From an uncultured Planctomycetia bacterium (GTDB lineage: Bacteria > Omnitrophota > Gorgyraeia > 1-14-0-20-64-10): a stretch of DNA of 64,000 bases. The translations under genes and the position numbers were made by a program. The DNA lies in the NCBI GenBank assembly GCA_964373715.1, contig CAYJVR010000004.1:89255-153254 (forward strand). Direction: 5' to 3'. Position 1 is the first letter of the stretch. Each line of letters starts with the position of its first letter. The notes under the pieces were generated by a model. It saw nothing but the letters and a program-made list of their open reading frames with translations. It had not been told where the DNA came from and searched no databases. Positions 270 through 60,957 of this stretch are shown one piece after another.

Positions 270-784
270 TCCGTCCGAGCCTTAAAGAAAATTTGATCCT
301 CCTCACGGCTGCGCTCTTTCTCTGCTTCCCCGCAACCGCTGCCGCAAAAGAAATCGATATTAAAGTGGAGGAGTCGCCGGCGAACGCGCTCGACATACAA
401 AAACAGGCGGGAAAAACCCTTGAAGAAATCCAGCGTAAAAACAAGGAGATGCAAAACAGAGAGATGGAGCGGCTGCAGCAGGATTATCCGGCCATTTATG
501 AATCGAGGAAAGTTGCCGACGCCAGACGCAATAAAATAAGCGCGATTGTCGCCGCCTTCCATCAGAATAAGACCTCCGCGCAGGAGGCGGAACAGAAGCT
601 GACCCCCCTAATGAGGGAAGAACTCAGCGAGCAAATCAGCCAGATGGGCCTAAAAATCTCGGCCTTGGAAAAACATCTGGCTTTTCTGAAAAAGGCCAAA
701 CAAGACCCCCATTTGTTGGTTGAAAAGAAGATCGATGAGCTCCTGGGGCTTACCCTGCCGACTCCTGAAGGGGGGACCTTTTAA
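266..784 (+). CDS. small secreted coiled-coil protein (hypothetical); start ATGA-overlaps the stop of the upstream S74-domain gene
   Basis: N-terminal signal-peptide-like hydrophobic stretch (LILLTAALFLCFPATAAA); the rest is charged, heptad-like, low-complexity sequence. Paralogous to the next ORF: the conserved C-terminal block KAKQDPHLLVEKKIDELLGLTLPTPEGG matches QARKNPNFFVKSKVDELLGKSLPNPED. Confidence 0.5.
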   Translation: MIRPSLKENLILLTAALFLCFPATAAAKEIDIKVEESPANALDIQKQAGKTLEEIQRKNKEMQNREMERLQQDYPAIYESRKVADARRNKISAIVAAFHQNKTSAQEAEQKLTPLMREELSEQISQMGLKISALEKHLAFLKKAKQDPHLLVEKKIDELLGLTLPTPEGGTF

Positions 785-785
785 G

Positions 786-1274
786 GTGGGCAAGCTATTG
801 CGGACTTATCTGCTTTTTGCAGTTCTTCTCATCTCTGTCCCTGCCGGCTTGAGCCTGGCGGCGGATGAACTCCCGACCCCGGAAAAAATACGGGACGATC
901 AGCAAAGAATGCGGCTTGAAATAGAAAAAGCTCGGTGGAAAGAACTGGAGGAGTTAAAGAAAACCTCCCCCGACGCTTATAAGGAGCAGAAAGCGGCCCT
1001 GACCAGGCAAGTGCAGATCAGCGATATCATCAACTCCTTTCATCAAATGACGATCTCCCAGCAAGAGGCGCGGCGAGCCTTGGCGCCGTTGGTCCAGCAG
1101 GAGATTAAGAATAATGTTCAGCTGTTGGACAAAAAGATTGAGATCTTACAGAAGAAGCTGGTTTTCTTGAAACAGGCGAGAAAAAATCCCAATTTTTTCG
1201 TCAAGAGCAAAGTGGATGAACTGTTGGGGAAATCGCTTCCAAATCCAGAGGATATGCTTCCGGATTTTTTTTAA
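786..1274 (+). CDS. small secreted coiled-coil protein, paralog of 266..784; a GTG start at 786 is preferred over the TTG at 720
   Basis: GTG at 786-788 lies 2 nt after the stop of the previous ORF and is preceded by the SD-like AAGGGGGGAC. From that start the N-terminus VGKLLRTYLLFAVLLISVPAGLSLAAD is a signal peptide. The 720 TTG start would overlap the previous gene by 65 nt. Confidence 0.5.
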   Translation: MGKLLRTYLLFAVLLISVPAGLSLAADELPTPEKIRDDQQRMRLEIEKARWKELEELKKTSPDAYKEQKAALTRQVQISDIINSFHQMTISQQEARRALAPLVQQEIKNNVQLLDKKIEILQKKLVFLKQARKNPNFFVKSKVDELLGKSLPNPEDMLPDFF

Positions 1275-2935
1275 GGGAGATTTTCCTTCTTCTCGAGAAC
1301 CTCGATCCGTTTCTTCAGAGACGTATTTTCGGCTTTGAGTTCTTTGACCGCCTGTAAAAGAACAGCGGTAAATTTCCCGTAATCCAGCCCTTTATACCCG
1401 TCGCTCGTATAAACAAGTTCCGGGAAAACCTTTTCGACATCCTGAGCAATCACGCCAATCTCTTTTCTTTCCGGCAATACAGGGTATCCTTTTGCCTTGT
1501 AGAGATCATTCCAATCGTAAGAAACACCCTCAATGGCGTCTATTTTCTGCAGAACACCGGTTAAAGGCTCAATGTGGCTCTTTAAACGAACATCCGACGG
1601 CGTAATAGTTCCCGACGCAAGGATGTTGCCTATGACATGCAGCTTCTCTGTCGGGCTGTCTGTCCCAAGCCCGACAAACTCGCCCGGTGTAATCGTGAAA
1701 GGAAATGACCAGCTGACACCGTTGTTGTAGGCAATCTGGAACTTATTCACAACGCCGGCCGCTTGTTTATGCGAAATCTGCCAGAACTTGTCGGTCGCCT
1801 CATCCGACACAAGGTTAAGGGCGGAAAAATTGTCCCCGTCCCCGGTCCCCCAAATGGATTGATATGCCGCGTCACCGTTTCGGTAGACCGTCAAAGCGGA
1901 GCCAGGATTCAAAAGCCCGATACCGACGTTTCCGTTACCCGCAATAGCCAATCGAACCGTCTGAAGGGTCGGCACAACGTCTCCGGTTCCACTCACGCTG
2001 CCGATGCCGGTATACATAAAGATGCCGGAGGCCCCAGTGCCTGTCGAAATACCGGAGGAGAGGACCAGGTTTCCCCCGTCCCTGTTCGTCGCCGCCACGG
2101 TGGTCCCGCCGGCCCTGACCGTCAGGTTGTTGCCTCCGGTGTTCGGGGCGGTATGCCGCTCCATCTGTATCATCCGGGTGTTATTACCGTTGATTCCAAT
2201 CGTAGCGGTGGCGTTGTATGCCCCTATCGCCAGCATGGGGACATCCAAAGAAATATTGGTTGAGTCTTGAAGGACAAACACCGGCTGCCATCCGCCGCCG
2301 GCGTTAAAATCGCGGTAGAGCACATGGAAATTATGCGATGCCGTCGCGCTCCTGTTATGGCCGATCTGCCAAATCTGGTCGTCCGCCTCAGATCCGACAA
2401 CTCCGAAATCGGCGTCGAGATTGATGGCGCAGTAGTTATCCGGATCCCCCACTCCGGTAGACCGGAGCCGCATGTAGAGGGCGTCATAAGGGCGCACGAT
2501 ATCCACGCCGGACAAAGGGGTGGCTGTCCCTATGCCGAAGTTCAAAGCCGGTCCCCCGGGTCCAGGAACATCGTTGCCCGGCATAAAGACCACCTGGCCT
2601 ATCCCATCATCCGGTCCGCGGACACGCAGGAGGTCTTCCGGCGTCCCAGGGGCGGTCAAAATGGAGCGGATGTCCAACAAACCGGCCGGAGTGCGGGTAC
2701 CCATCCCCACGCGCCCCTCCACGGCTAAACCGTTAGCCGGAACAGGCTGAGAATTGTAGCCGGCGCCGATGCCGGCGCTGTTGACGTAAAGAGGGTCCGG
2801 AAGGTCATTGCCGGTAGCCGGATAATAGGTAACGAACTCGAGGGTTTCAGCCCAGACAAGCCCGGCCATCAAACCGACTAAAAGGAACAGCGCAATTCCG
2901 TGTGTCCGCCATGTTTTGATGATCATTTGTGTCAC
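1271..2935 (-). CDS. secreted Gly-rich fibre-like protein with C-terminal intramolecular chaperone (peptidase S74, tail-fibre/endosialidase chaperone) domain
   Basis: Signal peptide (IALFLLVGLMAGLVWA). N-terminal motif FVTYYPATGNDLPDPLYV is shared with the three tandem paralogs. Central region has repetitive G-x-G-T motifs (GIGTATP, GMGTRTP, GLGTDSP). C-terminus PSDVRLKSHIEPLTGVLQKIDAIEGVSYDWND...GVIAQDVEKVFPELVYTSDGYKGLDYGKFTAVLLQAVKELKAENTSLKKRIEVLE matches the S74 signature SDxRLKxNI...Y.Y..-...IGFIAQEV...P. Its stop overlaps the stop of 786..1274 in a convergent TTAA. Confidence 0.7.
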   Translation of the reverse strand: MTQMIIKTWRTHGIALFLLVGLMAGLVWAETLEFVTYYPATGNDLPDPLYVNSAGIGAGYNSQPVPANGLAVEGRVGMGTRTPAGLLDIRSILTAPGTPEDLLRVRGPDDGIGQVVFMPGNDVPGPGGPALNFGIGTATPLSGVDIVRPYDALYMRLRSTGVGDPDNYCAINLDADFGVVGSEADDQIWQIGHNRSATASHNFHVLYRDFNAGGGWQPVFVLQDSTNISLDVPMLAIGAYNATATIGINGNNTRMIQMERHTAPNTGGNNLTVRAGGTTVAATNRDGGNLVLSSGISTGTGASGIFMYTGIGSVSGTGDVVPTLQTVRLAIAGNGNVGIGLLNPGSALTVYRNGDAAYQSIWGTGDGDNFSALNLVSDEATDKFWQISHKQAAGVVNKFQIAYNNGVSWSFPFTITPGEFVGLGTDSPTEKLHVIGNILASGTITPSDVRLKSHIEPLTGVLQKIDAIEGVSYDWNDLYKAKGYPVLPERKEIGVIAQDVEKVFPELVYTSDGYKGLDYGKFTAVLLQAVKELKAENTSLKKRIEVLEKKENLP

Positions 2936-7621: not shown

Positions 7622-9373
7622 TTACTTCCTCAGCTCTTCCAGTTCCGACCGGAGAGCGTTTATCTCCACCTGCTGCGCCTTCACGGCGGCCAAGAGGGCG
7701 GCCAAAGAATCGCCCTGCACAATTCCCTGCCCGGAGTCGTCCACCATCTCAGCAGGCGCTTCTTCGGTGAGGATCCCCAGCCTGTGCGCTTTCGCGTGAT
7801 CTCCGCTCTTTAAACGAAAATGGTAAAGAGAAACCGACAAGAGCTTCTCCAGAATGGCCTGCTCTTCCGGGAGGGTCAACGGAACCAGATCTGTTTTTAC
7901 CTGGACCGTCGAGTTATCGAACGTCGCTCCGACTCCCTCAGCCCGTGCGTCTCCGTTGATTTTGACGACCTCCGCGGCTCCAATCGCAGCCGTCACCCCA
8001 AAAAACGCCCCGTCCTGATAAAAAGCCCCCTGGATAGGCGACGCGGCACTCCTGTTGCTCGACCTAATATTTACCGTGAGGGTAGACGGATAAGGATTGC
8101 CCGCGGCGTCCCGGACCGCCGAGTACCCGAAACCAACCCGCCCCCCCTCGAGTTCAATGTAAGCAGGAACACCTCCCTCTGAAGAGGTACCTGCTCTTCC
8201 CAAGCGCAGTATGGGACCGGTCGTAAACATCTGATAAACTGGGTTCGCGGCAGGAGAGGAGTTGACGGTGACCGTCGTCCCGTAAAAAGACGGCGGTCCG
8301 GTTGCGCTATCCACAAGATGCATCATCGCCCTTGGGGCGATTGTCTTCACACCCACGGTTCCGTTAAATATAGCGTTGGCCGCTGCGACCCTCAAGCGGG
8401 CGTTGGTGGTAGTCGTGGTGTTAATTGCCGCGTACCCATCGTTCCGCATCCGGAACCGGACGGTGGCAGGCGTTCCGCCGCCGGTGGTATCCATCATAAC
8501 CTGGAATTCGCCGGCTGCCAAAACAGCATTCCCCTCATTGAGCAGGTTAAACGGCCGGCCGCCTGCTGAGGGGGTAAACCGGATCACCCCTCCGGTGAGG
8601 AAGCCAACGCCGCCATTCTCAGACGGGCCCACATCCAGCTGGGCCAGAGGGTCCGCGAAACCACCGTTAGCGGCTCCTTCAAAAAATATTCCCACGCTTC
8701 CATTGTTCAGAACCCGTATCTTTTCACCCGCTGTACCCGTGCCACCGGGGGGAATACGGGTGCTCAACTGTAATTTTCCGGAACTGTTCTCCAGCGTGAA
8801 GCGAGTATGGTCCGGGTTCGCTCCGTTGAGGGCGCCGGCCCAAAAAACATTGCCCCCCGCATTGAGTCCATCCTTGGGGCCGATCTCCAGAGGAGCCAGC
8901 GGATCCCTGACGCCGGTATCCTCCGAAAAAATCCCCACGCGGCCGGTGTTTAAAACCCGCATCCGTTCGCTCGACCCAGCCGCGGTCTGCACGATAAGGC
9001 GCAGCTGCATCGTATTGTTCTCGAAATAGCGCCACCGGTTGGCCCCTGCCCCGAGTAAACGCACCGCACCGCCCAAGTTGACCGCGTCCCGCGGACCGGC
9101 ATCCAGCGGCACGGCCGGAGCGGCCACATTGACCCCCACCGACCCCGCGACGATCGCGGAATCGGCGGGAGGATCAATCGCCGCGTACGGAGCACCGACG
9201 GTCAAACGCCTGACATGGAACGGATCCGGGATGTTCCCGTTGGTCGGGTAATACTCGATCATATCCACTTGGGTCTGCTCGGCCCACGCGGCCGGACAAA
9301 TCAGGCTGAGCAAGGCCCCCAGGGTAAAAAGGAAACGTCCTCCTTTTCTTCCGTACGAGAACTTTTTCATCAC
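7622..9373 (-). CDS. secreted fibre-like protein with C-terminal S74 intramolecular chaperone domain (tandem paralog 3 of 3)
   Basis: Signal peptide LFTLGALLSLICPAAWA. N-terminal motif MIEYYPTNGNIPDPFHVRRLTVG is conserved in all paralogs. The central region is Gly-rich and repetitive. C-terminus VKTDLVPLTLPEEQAILEKLLSVSLYHFRLKSGDHAKAHRLGILTEEAPAEMVDDSGQGIVQGDSLAALLAAVKAQQVEINALRSELEELRK is an S74-like chaperone domain. The start overlaps the upstream gene by 4 nt. Confidence 0.75.
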   Translation of the reverse strand: MMKKFSYGRKGGRFLFTLGALLSLICPAAWAEQTQVDMIEYYPTNGNIPDPFHVRRLTVGAPYAAIDPPADSAIVAGSVGVNVAAPAVPLDAGPRDAVNLGGAVRLLGAGANRWRYFENNTMQLRLIVQTAAGSSERMRVLNTGRVGIFSEDTGVRDPLAPLEIGPKDGLNAGGNVFWAGALNGANPDHTRFTLENSSGKLQLSTRIPPGGTGTAGEKIRVLNNGSVGIFFEGAANGGFADPLAQLDVGPSENGGVGFLTGGVIRFTPSAGGRPFNLLNEGNAVLAAGEFQVMMDTTGGGTPATVRFRMRNDGYAAINTTTTTNARLRVAAANAIFNGTVGVKTIAPRAMMHLVDSATGPPSFYGTTVTVNSSPAANPVYQMFTTGPILRLGRAGTSSEGGVPAYIELEGGRVGFGYSAVRDAAGNPYPSTLTVNIRSSNRSAASPIQGAFYQDGAFFGVTAAIGAAEVVKINGDARAEGVGATFDNSTVQVKTDLVPLTLPEEQAILEKLLSVSLYHFRLKSGDHAKAHRLGILTEEAPAEMVDDSGQGIVQGDSLAALLAAVKAQQVEINALRSELEELRK

Positions 9374-11133
9374 GGGTCTAAACCCCCAAGAGTTCCGTGA
9401 GCGGCGGATTGAGCGGTTTTCTCTTTCCTTATCCGCCCGATCCTGGCCCTTAAAGATTCGATCTCTTCTTGCTGGGCCTTGACCACCGCGATCAGAGCGG
9501 CCATATATTCCGGCAGGTCCAGCGCCTCATGGTGGTCGTCCACAATATCGTCCATGGCCTCCTCGACCAGTATCCCCACGCGATGCGATTTAGACGTTTC
9601 GACAGCCTCTTTCCTCTGGTAATTGTACAGGGGCACATCCATCAGCTGAGAGGCAAGCCCCCTCTCCTCCAGTGAAGTCAGACGGGCCAAATCTGTTTTA
9701 TAGGCGACCGAACTGCCCCATGTCCAGCCGCCGGTCGCCAGAGCGTCCCCGAAAACCTTCAAAGCATAACCGGCCGTGTAGGTGAACCCGCCGATCAAGC
9801 ACCGGTCGGTATGGGCCTGCCCTATCACCGTGAACATGTTGTTCCCGATAGGCATTCCCCTGATCCCAGTCTGTCCGTCGGCCCCGGATGGCGGCACTGT
9901 TATATTCCCCAGTCCACCCCTGCAGACAATACGCAGCTTCAAGACGTTTGCTGTTGGTGGGCCTACGGCGTCATACTCCCCGATGACCAGATCCTTATCG
10001 CTCACGGCTGAAGTCTGGTAATATAACCCGTAAGCAACAGTGGTGGTAGCGGGTTCGACTATAAGACCTCCGCCCGAGGGGGCCAAGGAGGAAGCCAGGA
10101 TACGGACGCCCGGCATCGTATCGGTCGTCGGAATACCGTTCAGCTTGAGATCCCCCTCTATAACGGTATTTCCATCGACCCGCAGCCCCCCCGCGGGAGG
10201 TGTTGGTAGCGGACTGCCGATCCCAAAACCTCCGGCATTCGTGAGCACCACTTTAGCGCTTGAAGAGCCGGCGCCGTCGTCCGTCCAAAACTGCAAATCA
10301 TTGCCCACACTGCGGATTTGCGCGTAGCGGGGATTCGCCGTGGTTCCGGCCAAATGAATCCTGGCCCCGGTTGCCGCAGATTCCGCGCCGATGTGCAGGA
10401 CTTCGGTGGGATTGACCACACCGGTACCATTGACGAAAATCCCGACACTGCCCGCCAACACACCCGCCCCGTCATCGACAACCGTCCGCAAAACCTCCCT
10501 GTCCGGATTGACGCCGTCCTGCATCATGAGCCTGAACCGGCCGGCATTGTTCTCCAGATGGAAATACCCGTTCGTGTCGGCCCCGACAAACATCAGCTGG
10601 CCGCCCAGGTCGGTGGGATCCCTGGGCCCGAGGTGAAGCGGCTCCTGCGGATCAAGCGCAAGACCGTCGGAGTGGGGATAAATCCCGAGAAAACCGGTTT
10701 CCATTATCCGCATTCTTTCCGTAGCGACCGCCGCTCCGGTATCATCGGTGTTGGTGAAGAACCGTATTCTTCCCGTGTCGTTTTCCAGATAGAACCAGCG
10801 GTTGGCCCCCGCTCCGAGCAGGCGCAGAGCGCCGCCCGAGTTGACCGCGTCCCGGGGCCCGATGTCCACAGAGATAATAGGAGCGGCTATAGACGGGTTA
10901 TTTGTTCTCACTCCCAGCGGGCCGGCGATGATAAGGGAATCGGCCGGCGGGGTGGTGGCCAGATAAGGGGTCCCGACTGTTTGACTCTGGACGCGGAACG
11001 GGTCCGGCAGGCTTCCTGACGGCGGATAGTAGGTTGTCACCTCCATCGTTTCGACGGCCCAGACCAGGGTGGCTGTGACCAGCACTCCCGCGAGAGTTCC
11101 AAAAACAGGAGTCTGCCAGAATTTATTGTTCAT
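9370..11133 (-). CDS. secreted fibre-like protein with C-terminal S74 intramolecular chaperone domain (tandem paralog 2 of 3)
   Basis: Signal peptide TLAGVLVTATLVWA. N-terminal motif TTYYPPSGSLPDPFRVQSQTVG. C-terminus YKTDLARLTSLEERGLASQLMDVPLYNYQRKEAVETSKSHRVGILVEEAMDDIVDDHHEALDLPEYMAALIAVVKAQQEEIESLRARI. A 4-nt overlap on both sides indicates translational coupling. Confidence 0.75.
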   Translation of the reverse strand: MNNKFWQTPVFGTLAGVLVTATLVWAVETMEVTTYYPPSGSLPDPFRVQSQTVGTPYLATTPPADSLIIAGPLGVRTNNPSIAAPIISVDIGPRDAVNSGGALRLLGAGANRWFYLENDTGRIRFFTNTDDTGAAVATERMRIMETGFLGIYPHSDGLALDPQEPLHLGPRDPTDLGGQLMFVGADTNGYFHLENNAGRFRLMMQDGVNPDREVLRTVVDDGAGVLAGSVGIFVNGTGVVNPTEVLHIGAESAATGARIHLAGTTANPRYAQIRSVGNDLQFWTDDGAGSSSAKVVLTNAGGFGIGSPLPTPPAGGLRVDGNTVIEGDLKLNGIPTTDTMPGVRILASSLAPSGGGLIVEPATTTVAYGLYYQTSAVSDKDLVIGEYDAVGPPTANVLKLRIVCRGGLGNITVPPSGADGQTGIRGMPIGNNMFTVIGQAHTDRCLIGGFTYTAGYALKVFGDALATGGWTWGSSVAYKTDLARLTSLEERGLASQLMDVPLYNYQRKEAVETSKSHRVGILVEEAMDDIVDDHHEALDLPEYMAALIAVVKAQQEEIESLRARIGRIRKEKTAQSAAHGTLGGLDP

Positions 11134-12914
11134 GGCCGCCCCTGTGCCCGCTCTTTCTCCAGATGATCAAGCTCCGACTTCAAAGACTCGATCTGAGCCT
11201 TCTGCGCTTTGAGCGCGGCCAACAACACGGACATGTAATCACTGCCGGCGATCGCACGCCCGCTGTCATCCACAATCTCTTTCGGCGCCTCTTCCGCCAG
11301 GATCCCGATGTGCCGGATTTTCGAATCGCCCGCCCCATTTTTCAAACGGTAGCGGTAAAGGACCTGTCCCGCCAATTTGTCCAGCAAATTTTTTTCATCG
11401 GTTGGACTCAGCCGGACCAGATCGGTCTTCCCGATCACAGAACTGCCTTCCGATTTGTTGCCGCTGGAATAAACCGCCCCCTGCACATGCATTTTATAAG
11501 GGAATACCAAAACCCCGCCCGCGCCGAACACCGCGGTATCTCCAAACATGGCGGCGTCGTTGCCGGCTAATCCGACGTCAAAAGGATAGGCCGGCGTCGT
11601 TATGTTGACGCCGACATACGCAGTCCCACCGACAGGATGGATCACAATGCGGCTGGCGGCATTGCCGCTGAGGGCCGGAGACTCGTCCCCGATCCGAAAA
11701 TCGGTGACCCCGCCGCCGACATCCACCGCCTGAAAAGCATAGGGCACCTTGGTCGCCGGCGGATTAATCGGGCCCTCCATTAAAAGGCCGGTAGTTCCTT
11801 TTATATGGAGTCCCGGGCTCGCAGCCGGGGCGCTTAACCCGATTACCATTTTTCCGGTACCCGCGACACCGACTTGAAGATTTCCGCCGGCCACATGAAG
11901 TTTCGTGCTCGCGCTTGGAACAGGAGCGGGGTTCCCGAAAGAGACATTTCCGGTGTTGGTGATCCGCATTTTCACGCTTTCAATTCCAACGCCATCCTGG
12001 GTCACAACCTGCAGTGTCTGGGCGTTGTTTTCGAAATAGAGGTACCTGTTTGTTCCGGCGCCTCTTAAAAGAAACTGTCCCCCGAGGTTCGTGGCATCGC
12101 GGGGCCCCAAGTGCAGAGCGGCCAGAGGATCCGTCACCCCGGTGTTGTTGTAGAAGATCCCCATTTGCCCCGTGGGTAAAATCCGGATTGCCTCATTCGC
12201 GCCGTTTTGCATCCTCAAACGGAATTGCGACGATTGATTCTCGATCAAAAAATAGGGGTGGTCCGGGTTGGCTCCGTTGACCGCGCCGGCCCAGAGGACC
12301 TCCGCGCCGTCGTTCGCGTTATCCACAGGGCCGACCTCCAGCATAGAGGTCGCGGCGGGGTCCACAACTTTATTCGTGCTCGGATAGATGCTCATTCTCC
12401 CCGTCTGGAGAATACGGACCCTATCCTCCGGGGCACCGACAGCGTTTTCAGACCAGATCCGGAACGCCCCGGTATTATTTTCAAACTCCCAAAACCGGTT
12501 GGCTCCCGCCCCCCGCAAGCGGATCAGGCCGCCTAGATTTCCAGCCGGGTTTCGGGCCACTTCAAGAGGAAACGTCGGGTTTGGCTCCCGGATCCCCAAC
12601 CGGCCGGCGATGATTAAAGAGTCGGCGGGGGTGGTGTTATTGGTCAGATAAAGGGTGGCCCCTTGATCAGCCCCCACCGTCATCCGGCGGACATGGAAGG
12701 GGTCCGTTGCCGTTACCGGCGGGAATGCGTAATACTCGACCATATCCACCTGCTCCGCCCAGGAGACCGTGGCCAGCATGCCGCCGGCGATCAGTACTCC
12801 GAATACTCCGGATCTTTTCTTCAGCATTTCGCGCACCCATCCGTGATTTGGCCTTAAGCTCTTTCTTTCGGCTTTTCCATACTGCTCAAAAAGCGGCCAA
12901 AAGAAACCGTTCAT
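11130..12914 (-). CDS. secreted fibre-like protein with C-terminal S74 intramolecular chaperone domain (tandem paralog 1 of 3); the true start may be the internal Met at ~12824
   Basis: MLKKRSGVFGVLIAGGMLATVSWA is a signal peptide if translation starts ~30 codons in. N-terminal motif MVEYYAFPPVTATDPFHVRRMTVG. C-terminus GKTDLVRLSPTDEKNLLDKLAGQVLYRYRLKNGAGDSKIRHIGILAEEAPKEIVDDSGRAIAGSDYMSVLLAALKAQKAQIESLKSELDHLEKE. Confidence 0.7.
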   Translation of the reverse strand: MNGFFWPLFEQYGKAERKSLRPNHGWVREMLKKRSGVFGVLIAGGMLATVSWAEQVDMVEYYAFPPVTATDPFHVRRMTVGADQGATLYLTNNTTPADSLIIAGRLGIREPNPTFPLEVARNPAGNLGGLIRLRGAGANRFWEFENNTGAFRIWSENAVGAPEDRVRILQTGRMSIYPSTNKVVDPAATSMLEVGPVDNANDGAEVLWAGAVNGANPDHPYFLIENQSSQFRLRMQNGANEAIRILPTGQMGIFYNNTGVTDPLAALHLGPRDATNLGGQFLLRGAGTNRYLYFENNAQTLQVVTQDGVGIESVKMRITNTGNVSFGNPAPVPSASTKLHVAGGNLQVGVAGTGKMVIGLSAPAASPGLHIKGTTGLLMEGPINPPATKVPYAFQAVDVGGGVTDFRIGDESPALSGNAASRIVIHPVGGTAYVGVNITTPAYPFDVGLAGNDAAMFGDTAVFGAGGVLVFPYKMHVQGAVYSSGNKSEGSSVIGKTDLVRLSPTDEKNLLDKLAGQVLYRYRLKNGAGDSKIRHIGILAEEAPKEIVDDSGRAIAGSDYMSVLLAALKAQKAQIESLKSELDHLEKERAQGRP

Positions 12915-12929
12915 TTCAGATCACCCCGG

Positions 12930-13442
12930 TTACTGGGTTGGCACTGTCCATTTGATCCTCATCCGGACTCGCCGCAAGTCGGTTACGTTATCCCCGTTAA
13001 AATCTCTGCCGATCAAACCATCCCCGTCAAAATCCTCATCTGCAATTCCATTGGCGTTTTCATCCGCTCTTTCCACATAAAGGTAAACCCCTTCTCCTGC
13101 TGCCGTCTGGAAACGCTGCAGTTCTGTCGGAAAATTCAGCCAGGTCGCTTTCACTGGGGCTACAGCCGGCACTGACGATGAGTTGGGCGGACTCGTCATA
13201 ATGTTGTCCACGTAATAGCCCGGCGCAAGCGTCGTCCCGTCGCCTAAAGCGGCCGCCACAGCCAACCGGAGCTTCTCCGTGACCCGCTGGATATGGCCCT
13301 GGACCATAATCTCCGTTTCCGACCGCCAGCTCACTTTCCGGCTGAAAGCAAAAGCGGTAAATATCCCGCTGGTGACAAGGGCGAATATCAGCATCGCCAG
13401 CATAATCTCCAAGAGGGTGACCCCCATTCGTCCGCTTTTCAT
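12930..13442 (-). CDS. prepilin-type N-terminal cleavage/methylation domain pseudopilin (GspH/I/J-like minor pilin)
   Basis: Start trimmed to the ATG at 13440-13442, with a GGAGAT SD 8 nt upstream. N-terminus MKSGRMGVTLLEIMLAMLIFALVTSGIF has the class III signal G|VTLLE with Glu at +5 followed by a hydrophobic helix. The ORF-track N-terminal extension overlaps the upstream gene. Confidence 0.6.
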   Translation of the reverse strand: MKSGRMGVTLLEIMLAMLIFALVTSGIFTAFAFSRKVSWRSETEIMVQGHIQRVTEKLRLAVAAALGDGTTLAPGYYVDNIMTSPPNSSSVPAVAPVKATWLNFPTELQRFQTAAGEGVYLYVERADENANGIADEDFDGDGLIGRDFNGDNVTDLRRVRMRIKWTVPTQ

Positions 13443-13446
13443 CCTA

Positions 13447-13977
13447 TTAATCTCCATAATCCGAAAAAACGCGCACCCGGAACTCCGGCTGCCCCACGCC
13501 GTTGATGCCCGATTGAGCTGTGACATCCACCTCGCGGCCGACGCGGCTGGGGAGGAGAGCCCCCATAAAAATATCATTCGTCCGAAAATCCGGCGCCCCG
13601 CCGCCCGCGGCGGCACACACGTTGCCGGAGACTCTCGACGTAATCACGTAAGCCCTGGGAGACCCGTGCGATCCCGCGTGAGTCTGCGCATGCCGGATCG
13701 CATTGGCAAACCCGGCCGGCGGTCGGGTAGCCAAAGCTTCAAGGTTAAACACCGCGTCAGTATACGTCGTATCCAGTTCGATCCGGTTGAAAACGTACCG
13801 GACCCCCGCCTCGCAAGCCGCCTGCGCCGCGGCATGATCCGCTTGAAGGAACGCCGCGTTAAAGCTGTTGAAGGAGAGGTTCATTACCGCCATCACGATA
13901 AAAAGAACCATCAGAGACGCCGCCACCGCAACAACCAGCGCAACCCCTTTTTCCGATGAACGGTCTCTTTTCAACAT
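13447..13977 (-). CDS. pseudopilin-like protein lacking Glu+5 (GspK/PilX-like minor pilin candidate)
   Basis: Start trimmed to the ATG at 13975-13977, which overlaps the stop of the upstream pilin by 1 nt. MLKRDRSSEKGVALVVAVAASLMVLFIVMAVMNLSFNSFNAAF has a prepilin-like hydrophobic N-terminal helix without E5, as in GspK. The 88-codon upstream extension in the ORF track lies wholly within the neighbouring gene. Confidence 0.5.
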   Translation of the reverse strand: MLKRDRSSEKGVALVVAVAASLMVLFIVMAVMNLSFNSFNAAFLQADHAAAQAACEAGVRYVFNRIELDTTYTDAVFNLEALATRPPAGFANAIRHAQTHAGSHGSPRAYVITSRVSGNVCAAAGGGAPDFRTNDIFMGALLPSRVGREVDVTAQSGINGVGQPEFRVRVFSDYGD

Positions 13978-14591
13978 CAGTTCGTCACCATCCCCCGCGG
14001 GCTGACCGTGCTGACCACCGTGCTTGTCCGCGTCTGCGTTCCGACCGTCTTTGTGACGGTCATCGAGATATCCAGCTGGGCCGGAGAAACGAGCGTGAAT
14101 GTGAAGCTGGCTACATTCCGGGCAATGATTTCCCCGCCGAAACCGGGATCCCCCGGATCCGCGACGGAAGCGCCCGGCACAAAATCCCGCCTGTAATACA
14201 AGATCTGGGCGCCGGAATCGTATCCGTAGTAATCCCACCAATCGTCCGTGGGGTCTAACGGGGTAGCCGTGCCGCCCGAAATGCTTCTATGGTCATAGCG
14301 GACCGCTATCTTGGAAGAAACATTTCCGACAGCCCCGTATTGGATGAGCCTATTCCCTAAGCCGACGAACTTCTTCAGGTGGGCGTGACCGTAAGAAGCC
14401 TCTCCTTGGGTTGTCGCCATGCCGACAGTCTGCATCAAGAAATTATGGGAGGTTCCGGTCACCATGACCATCCCCAGCCCAACAACCCCGATGAGGACCG
14501 CCGCCAACATGACCTCAACCAGCGTCATCCCTTTTCGTGAGAATAGCATCGGTTCTGCATAACCTCTCTTCAGGCAAGGGTCGGCTTTCAA
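13977..14591 (-). CDS. prepilin-type N-terminal cleavage/methylation domain pseudopilin (first gene of the pilin-fibre operon)
   Basis: MLFSRKGMTLVEVMLAAVLIGVVGLGMVMV has a canonical G|MTLVE prepilin peptidase site with E5, followed by a ~20-aa hydrophobic helix. Confidence 0.65.
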   Translation of the reverse strand: MKADPCLKRGYAEPMLFSRKGMTLVEVMLAAVLIGVVGLGMVMVTGTSHNFLMQTVGMATTQGEASYGHAHLKKFVGLGNRLIQYGAVGNVSSKIAVRYDHRSISGGTATPLDPTDDWWDYYGYDSGAQILYYRRDFVPGASVADPGDPGFGGEIIARNVASFTFTLVSPAQLDISMTVTKTVGTQTRTSTVVSTVSPRGMVTN

Positions 14592-14710
14592 TGACTAACC
14601 CTTTGGTTTTCTAGTATAAACTAACTATTAAATTGCTTAATAATAGCTCGGTTTTCCATATTTTCTTTTTCTCATAAAAAAGTATACCCGATCAAGCCCC
14701 TTATGACAAA
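14592..14710 (-). promoter_or_regulatory. AT-rich intergenic region, putative promoter of the pseudopilin/S74-fibre operon
   Basis: A 119-nt AT-rich spacer (ctagtataaactaactattaaattgcttaataatag...cataaaaaagtataccc) lies between the GDE gene end and the first pilin start. All six downstream genes are same-strand with 0-16 nt spacing or overlaps. Confidence 0.3.
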
Positions 14711-41225: not shown

Positions 41226-41525
41226 TGGTCGCGGGGCCTGGATTTGAACCAGGGACCTTCAGGTTATGCGTACCACTTCAGCTTTCGCTGCTTCATGCTC
41301 CAGCATGAATTTGTGGTCTGGACTATCCCATCACCCCGTACCTAGTGGTACGGGGTGCCCGCCGTCTAGTCTCTACACCTTCCTTGCGCTCAAAACCACA
41401 AGGCTTGGTTCGGGATCACCAGTAAAGGCTTCCCCGACTTTGACGGGTTTTAACTCAACCGTTGCCGGCTGAGTGGCCCAGATTTTATTTGAGCCTGACG
41501 AGCTACCAGACTGCTCCACCCCGCA
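41226..41525 (-). tRNA. tRNA-Met/Ile2 (anticodon CAT) interrupted by a group I intron; exons ~41492..41525 and 41226..41268
   Basis: 5' exon (rc) TGCGGGGTGGAGCAGTCTGGTAGCTCGTCAGGCT carries the acceptor, D-arm and 5' anticodon stem. 3' exon CATAACCTGAAGGTCCCTGGTTCAAATCCAGGCCCCGCGACCA carries the anticodon, 3' anticodon stem CCTGA, T-arm and acceptor. Joined, the anticodon loop is CTCATAA. The anticodon stem is TCAGG/CCTGA, so it is not an initiator tRNA. Confidence 0.7.
41269..41491 (-). ncRNA. group I self-splicing intron (Azoarcus-like, IC3-type) in the anticodon loop of tRNA(CAT)
   Basis: The intron RNA contains GGAAGGUGUAGAGACUAGACGGCGGGCACC (R element / P7 5' strand, near-identical to the Azoarcus ribozyme GAAGGUGUAGAGACUAGACGGCACCCACC) and GGGAUAGUCCAGACC (S element / P7 3' strand). 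The 5' exon ends in U, a GGCC internal guide sequence 11 nt into the intron pairs with exon GGCU, and the terminal intron nucleotide is G. Confidence 0.7.
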
Positions 41526-46972: not shown

Positions 46973-47578
46973 TTAGGCAGCCCGCCTACGCGAACGAAGA
47001 CCGAATCCGGCCAAACCCACTCCCATCAAAAGCATGGAGGCTGGCTCGGGAATAACGCCATTACCGCCGCCCTGCTGGTTGACGGTGTAGTTGCCGGAAA
47101 GGGTCGACTGATAAAGGCGAAACTCGTCGTTGCCGGCCGTGCTCTCTTCAACGCCCGCATTGAAAATCCCATCCGTCTGCAAAGCAGCCAGAGCAGCGGG
47201 AGTCAGGTTAAAATCGGTCGTTGTTATGGTGCTGCCAACGTTGGCTAAACTTCCAAGGGCATTTCCGTCTCCGGAGACATTCCACGTCTCGTTGCTAGTA
47301 TTCACATCCTTATAGGAAATCGTCAGCTTGGCATCAGAAATGGTGATGTTCCCGATCAAGTTCGGAGCAATCTCGGCAAGAATGTCATGAATCCAACTCT
47401 CATCTGGATTACTAGCGCCATCCTTTATCTTATCACTCCCAGTATTTCCAGGGCCGAGAACATTAAACGAATCCCACAAATCAACGAAATCGCTGAAAAC
47501 GATGGCCTGCGCTGGCTGAGGAACCACAAACAGCATCCCCCCAAAAACTAGCACGAATCCAATCAGCTTCTTCATCAA
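46973..47578 (-). CDS. PEP-CTERM sorting-domain secreted protein (exosortase substrate)
   Basis: N-terminal signal MMKKLIGFVLVFGGMLFVVPQPAQA; C-terminal VIPEPASMLLMGVGLAGFGLRSRRRAA is the PEP motif + TM helix + Arg cluster. Confidence 0.7.
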   Translation of the reverse strand: MMKKLIGFVLVFGGMLFVVPQPAQAIVFSDFVDLWDSFNVLGPGNTGSDKIKDGASNPDESWIHDILAEIAPNLIGNITISDAKLTISYKDVNTSNETWNVSGDGNALGSLANVGSTITTTDFNLTPAALAALQTDGIFNAGVEESTAGNDEFRLYQSTLSGNYTVNQQGGGNGVIPEPASMLLMGVGLAGFGLRSRRRAA

Positions 47579-55419: not shown

Positions 55420-56598
55420 ATGTCTGCCTCGTCTAATCCTAAAAAACTAAAAGCGCTTATTTTAGCCGAGAAGCACTACTACCTCGAAGCGCTTCTGCAA
55501 TGCCTGGGGCCGTTAGGAATCCGGCTGCATGTCATGTCAGCCAAGGAGGACCTTCACGTACAACTGTCCCGCTACTGCGCTGATTACTGGATCTGCGGGT
55601 CTTTGCGTTTGATGCAAGAGCAAGGGCATCTGGCGGATACGCTCAACATCTACTGCAGAGAAAACCGAATCTCGGTTGTCGTTCCCACCGATTTCATCAG
55701 CACGCTGCTCCTTTCCAAGATAAAGAAAGAACTGCATGCCGCGGCACTTTTCCCGACGGCCGATCCGGAAACTCTTATTGTGCTGAACAACAAATGGGAG
55801 TTCATGAAATCATTCGAGAAAAAAATCCCCTTCCCAAGCACGAAACGGCTTGATGAGAAAGCGCACCTCGATTCGCTTGATCTGCCTTTCCCTCTCATGG
55901 CCAAACGGTTGGACGATAAGGAGGGCTACGGTTCCTCCGCCCGCCGGGTCGATTCGCCAGAAGAACTATCCGCTTACGCTCTCGAAAAAGGATGGGCGTC
56001 CTCCCTGCTCGCGCAAGAATATATACCGGGGAAGGACATCGATTTAAGTGTTTTAGCGGTTGACGGCCGGGTTCTGGCCTGGACCATCCAAGAATGGCTA
56101 ACGGAAGAAAGATTGCGCTTTGTTCGGGAAGACCGTGTCCTGCAAATCGGCGAACAGATCATCTCTTCAACCCGGTTTACAGGGATAGCCCATTTTGACA
56201 TGCGAATTGATGAGCGGGATAACTCGCTCAAGGTGCTGGAATGCAACCCCCGCTGCTGGGGATCTATCGAGGCTTCCGCGAAGCGCGGGGTCAACTTCCC
56301 TTACGCCGGAATCCTTGCCGCTCTTGGCTATTCCCTCGACGGACGGATGAATTACAAGCCGGGTTTTTATTTTCCGAAACGGAGCTTCCGTCAGTATTTT
56401 ACATTCCGGGTTTCCATCCAATGGTGGATCACAGGATCAATCCTTCGGGATCTATGCGCAATTCTTTCAGACCCGCTACCTTATCTCTATTTTAGAATCC
56501 CGAAATTTCTTCGAAAAAACCTGCTCATCTTCAGTAAATCCTATCCTCTGGTCTCCCGACGAAAACAACGATCTCTTCCCGTTAATCCTGGTTCATAA
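55420..56598 (+). CDS. ATP-grasp domain protein (carboxylate-amine ligase-like)
   Basis: GIAHFDMRIDERDNSLKVLECNPRCWGS is the ATP-grasp C-terminal E-x-N-x-R motif region. Confidence 0.55.
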   Translation: MSASSNPKKLKALILAEKHYYLEALLQCLGPLGIRLHVMSAKEDLHVQLSRYCADYWICGSLRLMQEQGHLADTLNIYCRENRISVVVPTDFISTLLLSKIKKELHAAALFPTADPETLIVLNNKWEFMKSFEKKIPFPSTKRLDEKAHLDSLDLPFPLMAKRLDDKEGYGSSARRVDSPEELSAYALEKGWASSLLAQEYIPGKDIDLSVLAVDGRVLAWTIQEWLTEERLRFVREDRVLQIGEQIISSTRFTGIAHFDMRIDERDNSLKVLECNPRCWGSIEASAKRGVNFPYAGILAALGYSLDGRMNYKPGFYFPKRSFRQYFTFRVSIQWWITGSILRDLCAILSDPLPYLYFRIPKFLRKNLLIFSKSYPLVSRRKQRSLPVNPGS

Positions 56599-60495: not shown

Positions 60496-60957
60496 ATGAA
60501 CCATTTCAGCGACAACATTTCAAGCGCGGACACCAAAGCAACATTCTTGATCGGTATTCTAAGCGCCTTGCTCGTTACCTTCTACACCAACGACGCGCGC
60601 AAAACGCTCTCTTGTCCTAGAACCGACTGGGGTCCGGTCCAATGGGTTACCCTCTGCTCTTTGGCATGCTTGGCAGCCGGAATACTTCTGGGGATTTATG
60701 TCGTCCGGCCCCGCCTCCTTAAAAACAGGGGCAATGGCCTGATTTCCTGGCCTCATGTGAGCGGCTTTAAAACCTGCACCGATTATGTGAGCCAGTTGGG
60801 CAACTCCTCCCGTTCAGAAATACTAGGAGAGCTGGCGGGCAGCAACTATGACCTCTCGAAGATCTGCGCGGCGAAATACTACTGGCTCAGCTGGTCATTC
60901 CACGTGGGGGGAACCGGTTTGATCGCAACGCTGCTGGCGCAGATCATCTCCCCCTGA
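60496..60957 (+). CDS. hypothetical membrane protein
   Basis: A 153-aa protein with 3-4 TM helices; no motifs. Confidence 0.35.
   Translation: MNHFSDNISSADTKATFLIGILSALLVTFYTNDARKTLSCPRTDWGPVQWVTLCSLACLAAGILLGIYVVRPRLLKNRGNGLISWPHVSGFKTCTDYVSQLGNSSRSEILGELAGSNYDLSKICAAKYYWLSWSFHVGGTGLIATLLAQIISP

Follow-up and report, generated by a model that had tools for sequence, protein, structure and literature searches.

The analysed window (the whole stretch of 64,000 nucleotides) carries, between positions 7622 and 14710, six ORFs on the minus strand in the order P1-P2-P3-F1-F2-F3. The initial annotation had described six closely packed minus-strand genes here, and this cluster was confirmed, with every ORF at the position then given and with short gaps or overlaps. 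The features of the locus, together with an unlinked fibre gene elsewhere in the window, are the following.

14550..14710, minus strand: AT-rich intergenic region upstream of P1, with sigma-70-like promoter match
13977..14549, minus strand: P1, predicted prepilin-type minor pilin, 190 aa; N_methyl and TIGR02532 above cut-offs
13447..13977, minus strand: P2, predicted pilin-like protein without Glu5, 176 aa; conserved hydrophobic N-terminus
12930..13442, minus strand: P3, predicted prepilin-type minor pilin, 170 aa; G/xTLxE motif (slash, cleavage site), sub-threshold profiles
11130..12827, minus strand: F1, fibre paralogue 1, 565 aa (594 aa from ATG 12914); signal peptide, N-module, S74-like domain
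11133..11444, minus strand: S74-like intramolecular chaperone domain of F1, 104 aa, Ser462 to C-terminus (SSVIGK, Lys467)
9370..11133, minus strand: F2, fibre paralogue 2, 587 aa; PDB profile and fold matches
9373..9714, minus strand: S74-like domain of F2, 114 aa, Ser474 to C-terminus (SSVAYK, Lys479)
7622..9370, minus strand: F3, fibre paralogue 3, 582 aa; S74-like domain, signal peptide
7625..7912, minus strand: S74-like domain of F3, 96 aa, Ser487 to C-terminus (STVQVK, Lys492)
1271..2935, minus strand: F4, unlinked fourth fibre, 554 aa; Pfam S74 63.6 bits, E 2e-17

Upstream of P1, a promoter is predicted by consensus match only (TTGTCA-17-TATACT at 14709..14681, minus strand, within the AT-rich intergenic spacer), and the 14550..14710 region was found to hold 7 promoter-consensus sites versus 3.0 +/- 1.7 in shuffles. 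The genes behind this single promoter-like site are tightly packed or overlapping: P2 starts on the stop of P1 (1-nt overlap), 4 nt separate P2 from P3, F2 starts within the stop of F1 (4-nt overlap, ATGA) and the F3 start overlaps the F2 stop by 1 nt. The gap between P3 and F1 depends on the start of F1, being 102 nt with the ATG at 12827 chosen by gene callers and 15 nt with the alternative ATG at 12914. The most likely starts of the other genes are 14549 (P1), 13977 (P2), 13442 (P3), 11133 (F2) and 9370 (F3). The GC content of the locus resembles that of its surroundings.

Pilin-like proteins P1 to P3

The P1 leader is MLFSRKG, followed after the cleavage site by MTLVEVMLAAVLIG; this 7-aa leader matches that of relatives, and the alternative TTG start at 14591 is the one called by NCBI. 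Both prepilin profiles were passed, Pfam N_methyl with 21.8 bits (GA 21.2) and TIGR02532 with 18.4 (cut-off 16.3). Nine homologues of 48-100% identity were found, one of which (Candidatus Omnitr...) is annotated by NCBI as prepilin-type N-terminal cleavage/methylation domain-containing protein. G-1 and E5 are kept in 7/7 homologues with a recorded N-terminus, and the C-terminal SPRG..TN is also conserved. In P3, the leader MKSGRMG is followed by VTLLEIMLAMLIF, G-1 and E5 are conserved in four lineages, and a conserved Asp-rich, DxDxDG-like stretch lies near the C-terminus. P3 is 76% identical to its orthologue in the related contig L008; its profile scores are sub-threshold (Pfam N_methyl 13.9, TIGR02532 12.7), the best NCBIfam matches being GspH (E 6e-4), ComGE and GspI. 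Apart from the conserved G/xTLxE motifs of P1 and P3, the 64 kb contain no prepilin motif of the form G-x-[TS]-L-x-E.

The N-terminus of P2 runs ...SEKG, then VALVVAVAASLMVLFIVMAV, giving a hydrophobic G/VALVV without Glu5, and the Gly, the hydrophobic helix and the absence of E5 are conserved in six homologues. P2 had no match in the Pfam/NCBIfam profile search, and its AF2 model, unreliable at an overall pLDDT of 44.5, places an N-terminal helix at 3-68 (confident only to about residue 40) before four strands. The label GspK-like has only the G/VALVV N-terminus without Glu5 as its basis, and by analogy P2 may take a GspK/PilX-type role. None of P1-P3 reaches the PilV/W/X or FimU model thresholds, and all their Gsp equivalog scores are far under the cut-offs. 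The pilin set of the initial annotation was upheld by profile for P1 and by motif conservation for P3, whereas HMM support was sub-threshold for P3 and nil for P2. P1-P3 are predicted to be minor pilins of a type-IV-pilin-like kind. Two carry Glu5 and the third lacks it, which is how a heterotrimeric complex that primes a filament or forms its tip is composed.

Fibre proteins and their S74-like domains

F1-F3 share one build. Behind a Sec signal peptide (ending ...VSWA/EQ in F1, ...LVWA/VE in F2 and ...AAWA/EQ in F3) come a conserved N-terminal module and then a beta-helical shaft, whose capping loops are of the MAT type ('xVGIGTxxPxxxL'); the distal part that follows is variable, and the protein ends in an S74 domain of divergent sequence. 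The N-terminal motif, initially written YYPxxGxxPDPFxV, was confirmed as YYP...PDPF. The F1, F2 and F3 orthologue groups are older than the split between the lineages of the window and L008, and the three are anciently triplicated Sec-exported fibre proteins.

The S74 nature of the C-termini, claimed from the outset, did not pass the Pfam PF13884 check, in which all three lie below GA 22 (F1 21.4 bits, F2 none, F3 13.1), a result that taken literally speaks against it. On the other hand, hhalign of the F1-F3 family against canonical S74 fibres gave 100% probability (E 8e-42), the alignment running end to end with SSVxxK falling on SDVRLK. The Ser-x4-Lys dyad is likewise conserved in 13 family members, Lys479 being invariant and Ser474 at least 90% conserved (F2 numbering). 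PDB profile matches of F2 were Bdellovibrio Bd2133 (E 4e-14) and 8OL4, 'cell wall surface anchor family protein' (E 0.0012); Foldseek with its AF2 model, a low-confidence monomer (pLDDT 57), gave 8OND (E 3.9e-6) and 8OML (Bd1334) as top matches and also found the MyRF ICA domain (7DC3). The S74 assignment is retained on these grounds, and the nearest solved structures to F1-F3 are the Bdellovibrio 'MAT' prey-recognition fibres. A representative-sequence search returned 4606 matches (E<=0.001), most of which fall on the C-terminal domain, and S74 fibres in cellular genomes are already known.

Besides the three tandem fibres, a fourth that was absent from the initial annotation was found in F4. 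It has the same N-module (LVWA, then ETLEFVTYYPATGNDLPDP) and a canonical S74 domain (SDVRLK), and is joined to F1-F3 by an hhalign bridge; its C-terminal ~40% only is matched by 917 phage records. No pilin genes adjoin F4, nor do the same-N-module fibres P0104, P0076 and P0031 have pilin neighbours. Hence the N-module alone implies no pilin partner, and dedicated docking to pilins cannot be its general function. Other S74 fibres lie in ordinary housekeeping contexts.

Conservation of the locus in relatives

The synteny check proposed with the initial annotation gave a clear outcome: five or more diverged lineages share the pilin-then-fibre order, among them a MAG named Candidatus Omnitrophica by NCBI, and it is present in every related contig long enough (L004+L016, L006/L010, L008/L009 and L017). 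Three pilins and three fibres are found in the window and in L008/L009; L004+L016 holds P2, P3 and three fibres on a contig that begins inside P2 and so shows no P1. In L006/L010, the P3 stop and F1 start overlap by 4 nt (ATGA). The Candidatus Omnitrophica MAG, a relative, has the cluster at the same chromosomal site, with GDE upstream and citrate synthase/Mdh downstream. When the window is compared with L008, identity is 62-78% for the flanking genes and higher for the pilins (52-76%) than for the fibres (45-48%). Within the fibres, the N-module (50-78%) and the S74 domain are conserved and the distal third is variable (15-40%). In a narrow group of uncultured Omnitrophota, the operon is thus chromosomal and conserved.

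As had been noted initially, the 64 kb contain neither a major pilin nor an ATPase, a secretin or a prepilin peptidase, and the window likewise has none of the gsp genes D, E, F, G, L, M and C. The proposal of a cellular pilin-fibre system stands as regards a cellular, vertically inherited locus, whereas cellular S74 fibres have precedents (Bdellovibrio MAT) and the PilY1 paradigm is known. Pilins and fibres are each of known kinds; no description of their coupling in one operon was found in the literature, in agreement with the first assessment.

Possible role of the cluster and comparison with known systems

Operon linkage, and only this, suggests display or export of the fibres in concert with a pseudopilus. 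With a probability of roughly 0.45, the minor pilins may form a tip complex which carries, displays or exports the S74 fibres via a pilus-like filament. In the periplasm, each fibre would trimerise on its S74 domain, which would then cut itself off at the conserved Ser of the S-x4-K dyad (putative autocleavage). The three pilins, processed by a prepilin peptidase encoded elsewhere, would assemble as a tip complex in the inner membrane and bind the conserved fibre N-module, as PilVWX holds PilY1. A type IVa pilus or T2SS-like machine, also encoded elsewhere, would extend the filament and push the fibre through the secretin, and the variable distal domains would reach the filament tip or cell surface and bind host or prey cells or particles. 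If true, each of the three paralogues would, through its own distal domain, add a different binding specificity. T4aP genes occur widely in Omnitrophota (PMC10066038), interplay with type IV pili has been raised for MAT fibres, whose surface anchor is not known (PMC10769870), and in Myxococcus orphan three-minor-pilin clusters form interchangeable pilus tips (PMC12075869). Against tip display, it can be observed that operon linkage could reflect mere co-regulation, that the P3-F1 gap in the window is possibly 102 nt and that P2 and P3 are without threshold HMM support. The same-N-module fibres that lack pilin neighbours, the low-confidence P2 and fibre models, the sub-threshold Pfam S74 scores of F1-F3 and the pilus machinery missing from the 64 kb count against it as well.

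It is conceivable, although rather unlikely, that pilins and fibres are co-regulated but mechanistically independent, an ordinary minor-pilin set priming a type IVa pilus and the fibres being separately anchored adhesins. The N-module would then be the anchor of the fibres, held by LPS, by the outer membrane or by some other element of the surface, an attachment presumed for the MAT fibres of Bdellovibrio too, and the operon would be shared only because pili and fibres both serve attachment. The same-N-module fibres without pilin neighbours, the S74 fibres in housekeeping contexts and the MAT fibres, which are not reported to need pilins, are consistent with this, but the 3+3 arrangement and order are strictly kept across lineages with fibres only 30-49% identical, and one lineage has a 4-nt overlap of P3 with F1. 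Moreover, the cluster is remote from pilus machinery genes, as dedicated 'tip' cassettes are, and independent adhesins would leave a Sec-exported trimer no route across the outer membrane.

A dedicated type II-like secretion system is improbable. P1-P3 would be pseudopilins of a T2SS-type piston and the fibres its cargo, expelled through a secretin as free soluble trimers (lectin-like, bacteriocin-like or matrix fibres) and not as tip-bound adhesins. The best HMM matches of P3 and P1, though weak, are GspH/GspI/GspJ, the absence of Glu5 in P2 parallels GspK, and T2SS substrates, like these fibres, carry Sec signal peptides; set against this are the missing gsp genes and the low equivalog scores, and, as far as is known, a pseudopilin operon does not normally include the genes of T2SS substrates. 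A prophage or tailocin remnant, with leftover phage receptor-binding proteins beside unrelated pilin genes, would fit the S74 domain typical of phage tail fibres, the weak PHROG tail-fibre matches of F1-F3 (E 5e-4 to 0.09) and the phage matches of F4. However, the lack of phage structural genes reported initially held for the scanned ORFs of the window (no capsid, terminase, baseplate, tube, integrase or lysis genes), the locus has no relatives in IMG/VR viral contigs, and F2 had no tblastn match in 50,697 phage genomes; the locus is therefore not a prophage. With the same chromosomal site in the relative added, this reading is effectively refuted, and the surroundings-like GC and the Sec signal peptides also speak against it. 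A cellular, vertically inherited locus is supported.

Among known systems, the fibres most resemble the mosaic adhesive trimer (MAT) fibres of Bdellovibrio bacteriovorus, an S74 subfamily (PDB 8OND, 8OL4, 8OML; Caulton et al. 2024, PMC10769870). Both are cellular and not phage, with several paralogues per genome, a signal peptide followed by a conserved N-terminal domain, a beta-helical shaft with the same capping loops, a variable distal region and a C-terminal S74 chaperone/protease with a Ser...Lys motif; MAT fibres are also the best PDB sequence and fold matches of the F1-F3 family. F1-F3 are shorter (~570 aa versus 922-1151 aa for the MATs with lengths given in PMC10769870), their S74 motif is S-[ST]-x3-K whereas that of MAT is SDxxxK, and they are linked to pilin genes, a linkage not mentioned in that paper. 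The pilin part resembles the Myxococcus Kil (Tad) pilus 'Tip' cassettes KilL/M/N, also an orphan cluster of three minor pilins, for which a heterotrimeric tip presenting a variable domain that contacts other cells is predicted in a predatory context (Herrou et al. 2025, PMC12075869). There, the pilins are TadE/F/G-type and the variable domain lies inside the pilin KilN, whereas the present cluster has small pilins and would draw its variable part from separate fibre proteins.

In the PilY1 paradigm, a minor-pilin operon (fimU-pilVWXY1E of Pseudomonas, or the Myxococcus clusters) continues into a Sec-dependent non-pilin adhesin, PilY1, which the minor pilins carry to the type IVa pilus tip. The present cluster likewise has minor pilins, one without Glu5, followed by large Sec-dependent non-pilin proteins, and lies apart from the assembly machinery. 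It differs in having only three pilins, none at the PilV/W/X or FimU thresholds, and a putative cargo of three S74 fibres, predicted trimeric, without a Pfam match to the PilY1 beta-propeller domain. The small pilin-like trio with one member lacking Glu5 and the weak GspH/I/J matches also recall the T2SS tip GspI-GspJ-GspK (+GspH), whereas the scores far below equivalog cut-offs, the absence of a gsp locus nearby and the putative cargo genes in the same operon set it apart; GspK has ~330 aa and an alpha-domain, P2 only 176 aa. With phage tail fibres or spikes and endosialidases (Peptidase S74, PF13884) and eukaryotic MyRF ICA, the fibres share a beta-helix followed by a C-terminal Ser/Lys-dyad chaperone, F4 reaching PF13884 at 63.6 bits and F2 recovering MyRF ICA by fold. 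Unlike the phage S74 fibres, F1-F3 stay under the Pfam threshold, F2 finds no tblastn match in phage genomes, and Sec signal peptides with a non-phage N-terminal module take the place of the virion-attachment domain.

Operon layout and the pilin-like genes

The initial annotation had described a tightly spaced six-gene cluster on the minus strand, and this was borne out by the ORF coordinates and by the junctions read from the sequence. Six consecutive minus-strand genes fill 7622-14710 and encode three pilin-like proteins (P1, P2 and P3) followed by three fibre paralogues (F1, F2 and F3). The junctions were compared with independent gene calls on contigs encoding identical proteins.

Table. 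Genes of the pilin-fibre operon
P1: 14549-13977, minus strand; pilin-like, 190 aa; leader MLFSRKG, then MTLVEVML…; the NCBI start is TTG at 14591
P2: 13977-13447, minus strand; pilin-like, 176 aa; …SEKG, then VALVVAVAASL…
P3: 13442-12930, minus strand; pilin-like, 170 aa; MKSGRMG, then VTLLEIML…
F1: 12827-11130, minus strand; fibre, 565 aa; an alternative in-frame ATG at 12914 gives 594 aa
F2: 11133-9370, minus strand; fibre, 587 aa
F3: 9370-7622, minus strand; fibre, 582 aa

Among the pilin genes, P1 and P2 overlap by 1 nt and P2 and P3 are 4 nt apart; F1 and F2 overlap by 4 nt and F2 and F3 by 1 nt. The gap between P3 and F1 is 15 or 102 nt, according to the F1 start chosen. Upstream lies a 160-nt AT-rich spacer in which the region has its best sigma-70-like match (TTGTCA-17-TATACT, 14709..14681), and the GC content of the operon (0.55-0.61) is no different from that of its flanks.

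The earlier designation of all three proteins as pseudopilins was found to be well founded for P1 and reasonable for P3 and P2, on account of the HMM scores and the conserved motifs. P1 scores above threshold with Pfam N_methyl (PF07963; 21.8 vs 21.2 bits) and TIGR02532 (18.4 vs 16.3), P3 falls under both (13.9 and 12.7 bits, respectively) and P2 matches neither of these prepilin models. The best NCBIfam matches of P3 were GspH (E 6e-4), ComGE and GspI. Only two G-x-[TS]-L-x-E prepilin motifs are present in the whole 64 kb, in P1 and P3. With the cleavage site marked by a slash, P1 (KG/MTLVEV) and P3 (MG/VTLLEI) show the basic leader, the Gly and the Glu at +5, and P2 (KG/VALVVA) has no Glu5. 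The class-III-signal-peptide layout, a short leader ending in Gly and a hydrophobic stretch, is kept in every relative, the site varying as KG/MTLVEV, QG/LTLIEV and KG/LTLVEL in P1, G/VTLLEI and G/ISLMEI in P3, and G/VALVVA, G/IALMVA and G/VVLAIA in P2, with Glu5 in none of the P2 proteins.

Absence of Glu5 is a hallmark of the GspK/PilX-type subunit at the top of the filament. The label of GspK-like previously given to P2 agrees with this conserved site and finds no HMM match, so that it is kept as an analogy only. The AF2 structure prediction of P2 (N-terminal helix 3-68, then four strands; mean pLDDT only 44.5) is compatible with a pilin fold and proves nothing. Profile searches of the PDB with the P1, P2 and P3 alignments returned noise only, with no sequence match. 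All T2SS equivalog models stayed below their cut-offs (GspH 19.9 bits against 80, GspI 15.4 against 44, GspJ 13.5 against 295), and P1-P3 are type-IV-pilin-like proteins outside every curated Gsp, Pil or Com equivalog. An assignment of P2 as 'Verru_Chthon cassette protein A' was rejected (E 0.21, 9.4 bits against a cut-off of 332), the likeness being confined to the N-terminal hydrophobic stretch.

The C-terminal part of P3 (12930-13100, minus strand) carries a conserved Asp-rich stretch, DENANGIADEDFDGDGLIGRDFNGDNVTD (DSDGDGSRGIDFDADGQAD in L004, a contig of a relative), which resembles DxDxDG calcium-binding loops and may be a calcium site, as in some pilins and PilY1.

No pilus or T2SS (gsp) machinery gene was found within the 64-kb window, as the initial annotation had also stated. 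Two adjoining genes of the window are the following:

61249-62070, plus strand: 273-aa protein with an MshEN domain fused to PilZ
62081-63481: GAF-HD-GYP-like protein adjoining the MshEN-PilZ gene

MshEN is the c-di-GMP-binding N-domain of T2SS/T4P ATPases, and the MshEN-PilZ protein could sense c-di-GMP as a receptor with a bearing on how pili are regulated.

Architecture of the fibres

The three fibre paralogues share 33-37% identity. Each begins with a Sec-type signal peptide ending in …WA and continues with an N-module of consensus E-x-x-[ED]-[MV]-x-x-Y-Y-P…PDPF[HR]V…TVG…Y…PADS.I[IV].G, in which the YYP…PDPF motif reported earlier is conserved. This is followed by about three repeats of ~78 aa (…IGPRD..N.GG…GAG.NR.FY.ENN.G..R…E[KR].RI.N.G.VGI…), a weakly conserved distal third and the C-terminal domain. 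A fourth fibre gene of the window bridges F1-F3 to the canonical S74 fibres:

F4: 1271-2935, minus strand; 554 aa; N-module shared with F1-F3 (signal peptide, ETLEFVTYYP…LPDP) and canonical S74 domain (SDVRLK)

F4 passes the PF13884 (Peptidase_S74) model with 63.6 bits. The gathering score of 22 bits is reached by none of the others (F1 21.4, F2 no match, F3 13.1), and in this respect the S74 domains claimed for all three were not recovered. Despite these sub-threshold scores, the S74 assignment of their C-termini can be regarded as secure at the sequence level because of a profile-profile match, a conserved Ser/Lys dyad, S74-scoring relatives and a match to the MyRF ICA fold. The hhalign comparison of the 13-member F1-F3 family with six canonical S74 fibres, F4 among them, gave an end-to-end match (probability 100%, E 8e-42) with the C-terminal domains aligned, S-S-V-x-x-K-T-D being placed on S-D-V-R-L-K-T. 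The Ser-x4-Lys dyad stands at the domain start as SSVIGK (F1), SSVAYK (F2) and STVQVK (F3); in the 13 sequences the Lys is invariant and the Ser at least 90% conserved (one Cys), and the Asp at +1 of the canonical SDxxxK is replaced by Ser/Thr in F1-F3. The seven nearest C-terminal relatives among 1.84 billion representatives have PF13884 scores of 17-37 bits, above 22 in six, and the AF2 monomer of F2 (low confidence, pLDDT 57) retrieved the MyRF ICA domain (7DC3) with Foldseek. S74 domains chaperone the folding of the trimer and then cleave themselves. This has been confirmed for one of the mosaic adhesive trimer (MAT) fibres, which are cellular (PMC10769870).

Over the 'G.VGIGT.AP..L.V' capping-loop repeats, a PDB profile search with the family matched Bd2133 (8OND, E 4e-14); a further match was 8OL4 (E 0.0012). 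The top ranks of Foldseek with the F2 model were also 8OND (E 3.9e-6) and Bd1334 (8OML, E 4.9e-4); these fold matches, coming from a model of pLDDT 57, are counted only as support for the sequence result. Judged from these profile and model matches, the shaft of F1-F3 is of the Bdellovibrio MAT type. To our knowledge, cellular S74 fibres have been experimentally characterised only in Bdellovibrio, where they recognise prey. The capping-loop motif matched here, xVGIGTxxPxxxL, is that listed in the supplement of the MAT paper (PMC10769870). MAT fibres have a signal peptide and then a ~130-aa beta-rich N-domain common to all MATs, and F1-F3 have a signal peptide and the N-module. The most fitting description of F1-F3 is that of divergent cellular fibres in the S74/MAT-type class.

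Relatives, synteny and fibres without pilin neighbours

The family profile retrieved 4606 proteins at E<=0.001 from 1.84 billion representatives, mostly via the C-terminal domain among the matches listed, and cellular tail-fibre-like S74 proteins are abundant in environmental bacteria. Full-length members of the F1-F3 family number only ~12 among the 1.84 billion, and scans of the GTDB representative genomes with the fibre alignment (narrow peptide patterns) and with the P1 alignment gave no relatives. The conservation of pilin-fibre synteny, which the initial annotation had proposed to check, was confirmed: the pilins-then-fibres order is present in every related contig long enough to judge.

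Table. Gene order in contigs of relatives
L006/L010: GDE (upstream flanking gene)-P1-P2-P3-F1; ATGA overlap of P3 and F1
L008/L009: complete P1-P2-P3-F1-F2-F3
L004+L016: P2-P3-F-F-F-citrate synthase
L017: end of P3, then two fibres

L008 comes from GCA_023818545.1 (NCBI name Candidatus Omnitrophica) and has the same neighbourhood as the window, namely AdoHcyase, LptF/G, tRNA methyltransferase, bifunctional nuclease, GDE, the cassette, citrate synthase and Mdh. Identity between the two is 62-78% for flanking proteins, 52-76% for pilins and 45-48% for fibres. Within the fibres, the conserved parts are the N-module (50-78%) and the S74 domain, and variability is greatest in the distal third (15-40%; 18-30% between paralogues). 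In a neighbour-joining tree, each window fibre groups with the L008 fibre of the same position, such as F1 with F1; therefore, the fibre triplication is older than their split. Between F3 and citrate synthase, two PMT/GT39-type glycosyltransferase genes are found in L008 (16222-18836) and L009 (12824-15372) and are absent there in the window, which hints that fibres or pilins may be glycosylated in some lineages.

A general association of S74 fibres with pilins was rejected. F4 lies downstream of sucCD with no pilin gene linked. The related proteins P0104, which adjoins cytochrome oxidase genes, P0076 and P0031 have the same N-module and no pilin neighbours, and P0019, with the F1-F3-type S74 variant and another N-module, is found in a housekeeping context, also without pilins. 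Coupling to pilins is therefore confined to the F1-F3 clade. This S74 variant (SS[IA]xLKT…LYRYRLK…HLG[IV]xAEE) also ends P0019-P0022, P0026, P0027 and P0029, whose N-module (AEIPRTMAFQGRL…VTFRI[FY]…LWEE) is quite different; hence, N-terminal swapping is modular in this large class of cellular fibres.

Two genes converge on F4:

266-784 and 720-1274, plus strand: two small secreted coiled-coil paralogues sharing …FHQ…S.QEA…L.PL……K…L.FLK.A..(D/N)P…V..K(I/V)DELLG

Their Pfam matches are weak only (DUF3450, lipase chaperone), and a role as chaperone-like partners of F4 in the periplasm is conceivable. Further features observed in the window are as follows:

41226-41525, minus strand: initiator-type tRNA-Met(CAU) gene interrupted within its anticodon loop by a group I intron (Rfam RF00028, 58 bits, 41298-41501); exons GCGGGGTGGAGCAGTCTGGTAGCTCGTCAGGCTCA / TAACCTGAAGGTCCCTGGTTCAAATCCAGGCCCCGCGACCA, then a terminator hairpin; no call here by ARAGORN
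46973-47578, minus strand: PEP-CTERM-anchored protein (32.6 bits), which implies an exosortase system in the organism
56582-57922, minus strand: 446-aa secreted protein with PHROG tail-fibre matches (phrog_13714, E 1e-16; phrog_37493, E 3e-18), no fibre N-module, no S74 and neighbours free of phage matches; may be a depolymerase-like domain that the cell has taken into its own use
60496-60957, plus strand: small membrane protein matching the Pycsar effector domain PycTM (43 bits); perhaps what is left of a defence system

Possible coupling of pilins and fibres, and known systems

The gene identities, the operon structure, the conserved synteny and the conserved ends and variable middle of the fibres are the observed basis, and from these the functional pilin-fibre link is wholly inferred. 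Minor-pilin sets build the tips of filaments and can carry an adhesin that is not itself a pilin, as in PilVWX-PilY1 and GspIJK. Such tip-forming sets are also described in the Kil 'Tips' (PMC12075869), and T4aP genes are common in Omnitrophota (PMC10066038). P1-P3 would form a tip or priming complex that binds the fibre N-modules and takes the fibres through a secretin on a filament, either a type IVa pilus or T2SS-like, whose genes lie elsewhere, with the three distal domains providing three specificities. A probability of about 45% is given to the P1-P3 complex binding the N-modules and carrying the fibres in this way. The more specific statement, that a heterotrimeric minor-pilin tip of a type IV filament carries, or exports via the secretin, phage-like trimeric S74/MAT fibres, is put forward tentatively and is rather doubtful.

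The synteny evidence, as read from the related contigs, is strong; the clade is narrow, and fibres with the same module manage without pilins. A mere co-regulation of independent adhesion factors is weighed as a serious, if less probable, reading of the operon. P1-P3 were not recognised as an ordinary gsp locus, either by equivalog scores or by gsp neighbours, and a T2SS-like piston that secretes free fibres is considered improbable. A phage remnant is hardly credible. F4 does match phages, over its C-terminal ~40% only; no capsid, terminase, tube/sheath, baseplate, integrase or lysis gene was found among the window ORFs scanned, as the initial annotation had noted, and the operon's neighbours are TCA, glycogen, Lpt and SAM-cycle genes. 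The family has no relatives in IMG/VR, F2 gave no tblastn match in 50,697 phage genomes, and the chromosomal position of the cassette is syntenic in L008. A prophage or tailocin was rejected on these grounds. Within the tip-complex reading, a single heterotrimeric F1:F2:F3 fibre matching the three pilins was also considered. The three orthologue groups are of ancient origin and stand in a fixed gene order; however, the paralogues differ by shaft indels and their distal parts are very different, which favours three homotrimers as the probable arrangement.

We know of no determinants of attachment specificity in Omnitrophota. This phylum is made up of uncultured nanobacteria for which a life attached to, and at the expense of, other cells has been inferred (PMC10066038). 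How S74 fibres of this kind cross the outer membrane and attach to the cell is explicitly an open question in the MAT study, whose authors leave the surface partner of the N-terminal domain unidentified and mention type IV pili only as a possibility (PMC10769870). The conserved, translationally coupled operon points to one concrete candidate that could be put to the test, the tip complex of a type IV filament. If this is true, the widespread cellular tail-fibre-like adhesins would have their first identified surface anchor or export route, and the ultra-small, putatively host-dependent Omnitrophota a device for recognising host or prey, in effect a pilus that can be retracted and is fitted with exchangeable 'phage receptor-binding proteins'. 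If it is false, the operon is still a clear case of adhesion genes under common regulation.

In comparison to known systems, the operon logic is like that of the T4aP minor pilin-PilY1 module, with minor pilins and then a Sec-dependent adhesin; this is an analogy only, and the C-terminal beta-propeller domain of PilY1/PilC has no match in F1-F3. The initial annotation knew of no system coupling minor pilins to S74 fibres, and no description of a conserved pilin-fibre operon was found in the literature searched. Neither component is new, cellular S74/MAT-type fibres and type-IV-pilin-like proteins both being known kinds, and the operon is therefore a new combination of known kinds. If the proposed coupling is true, it would be a new way of functionalising pilus tips, beside PilY1, modular pilins and the Tad 'Tips'.
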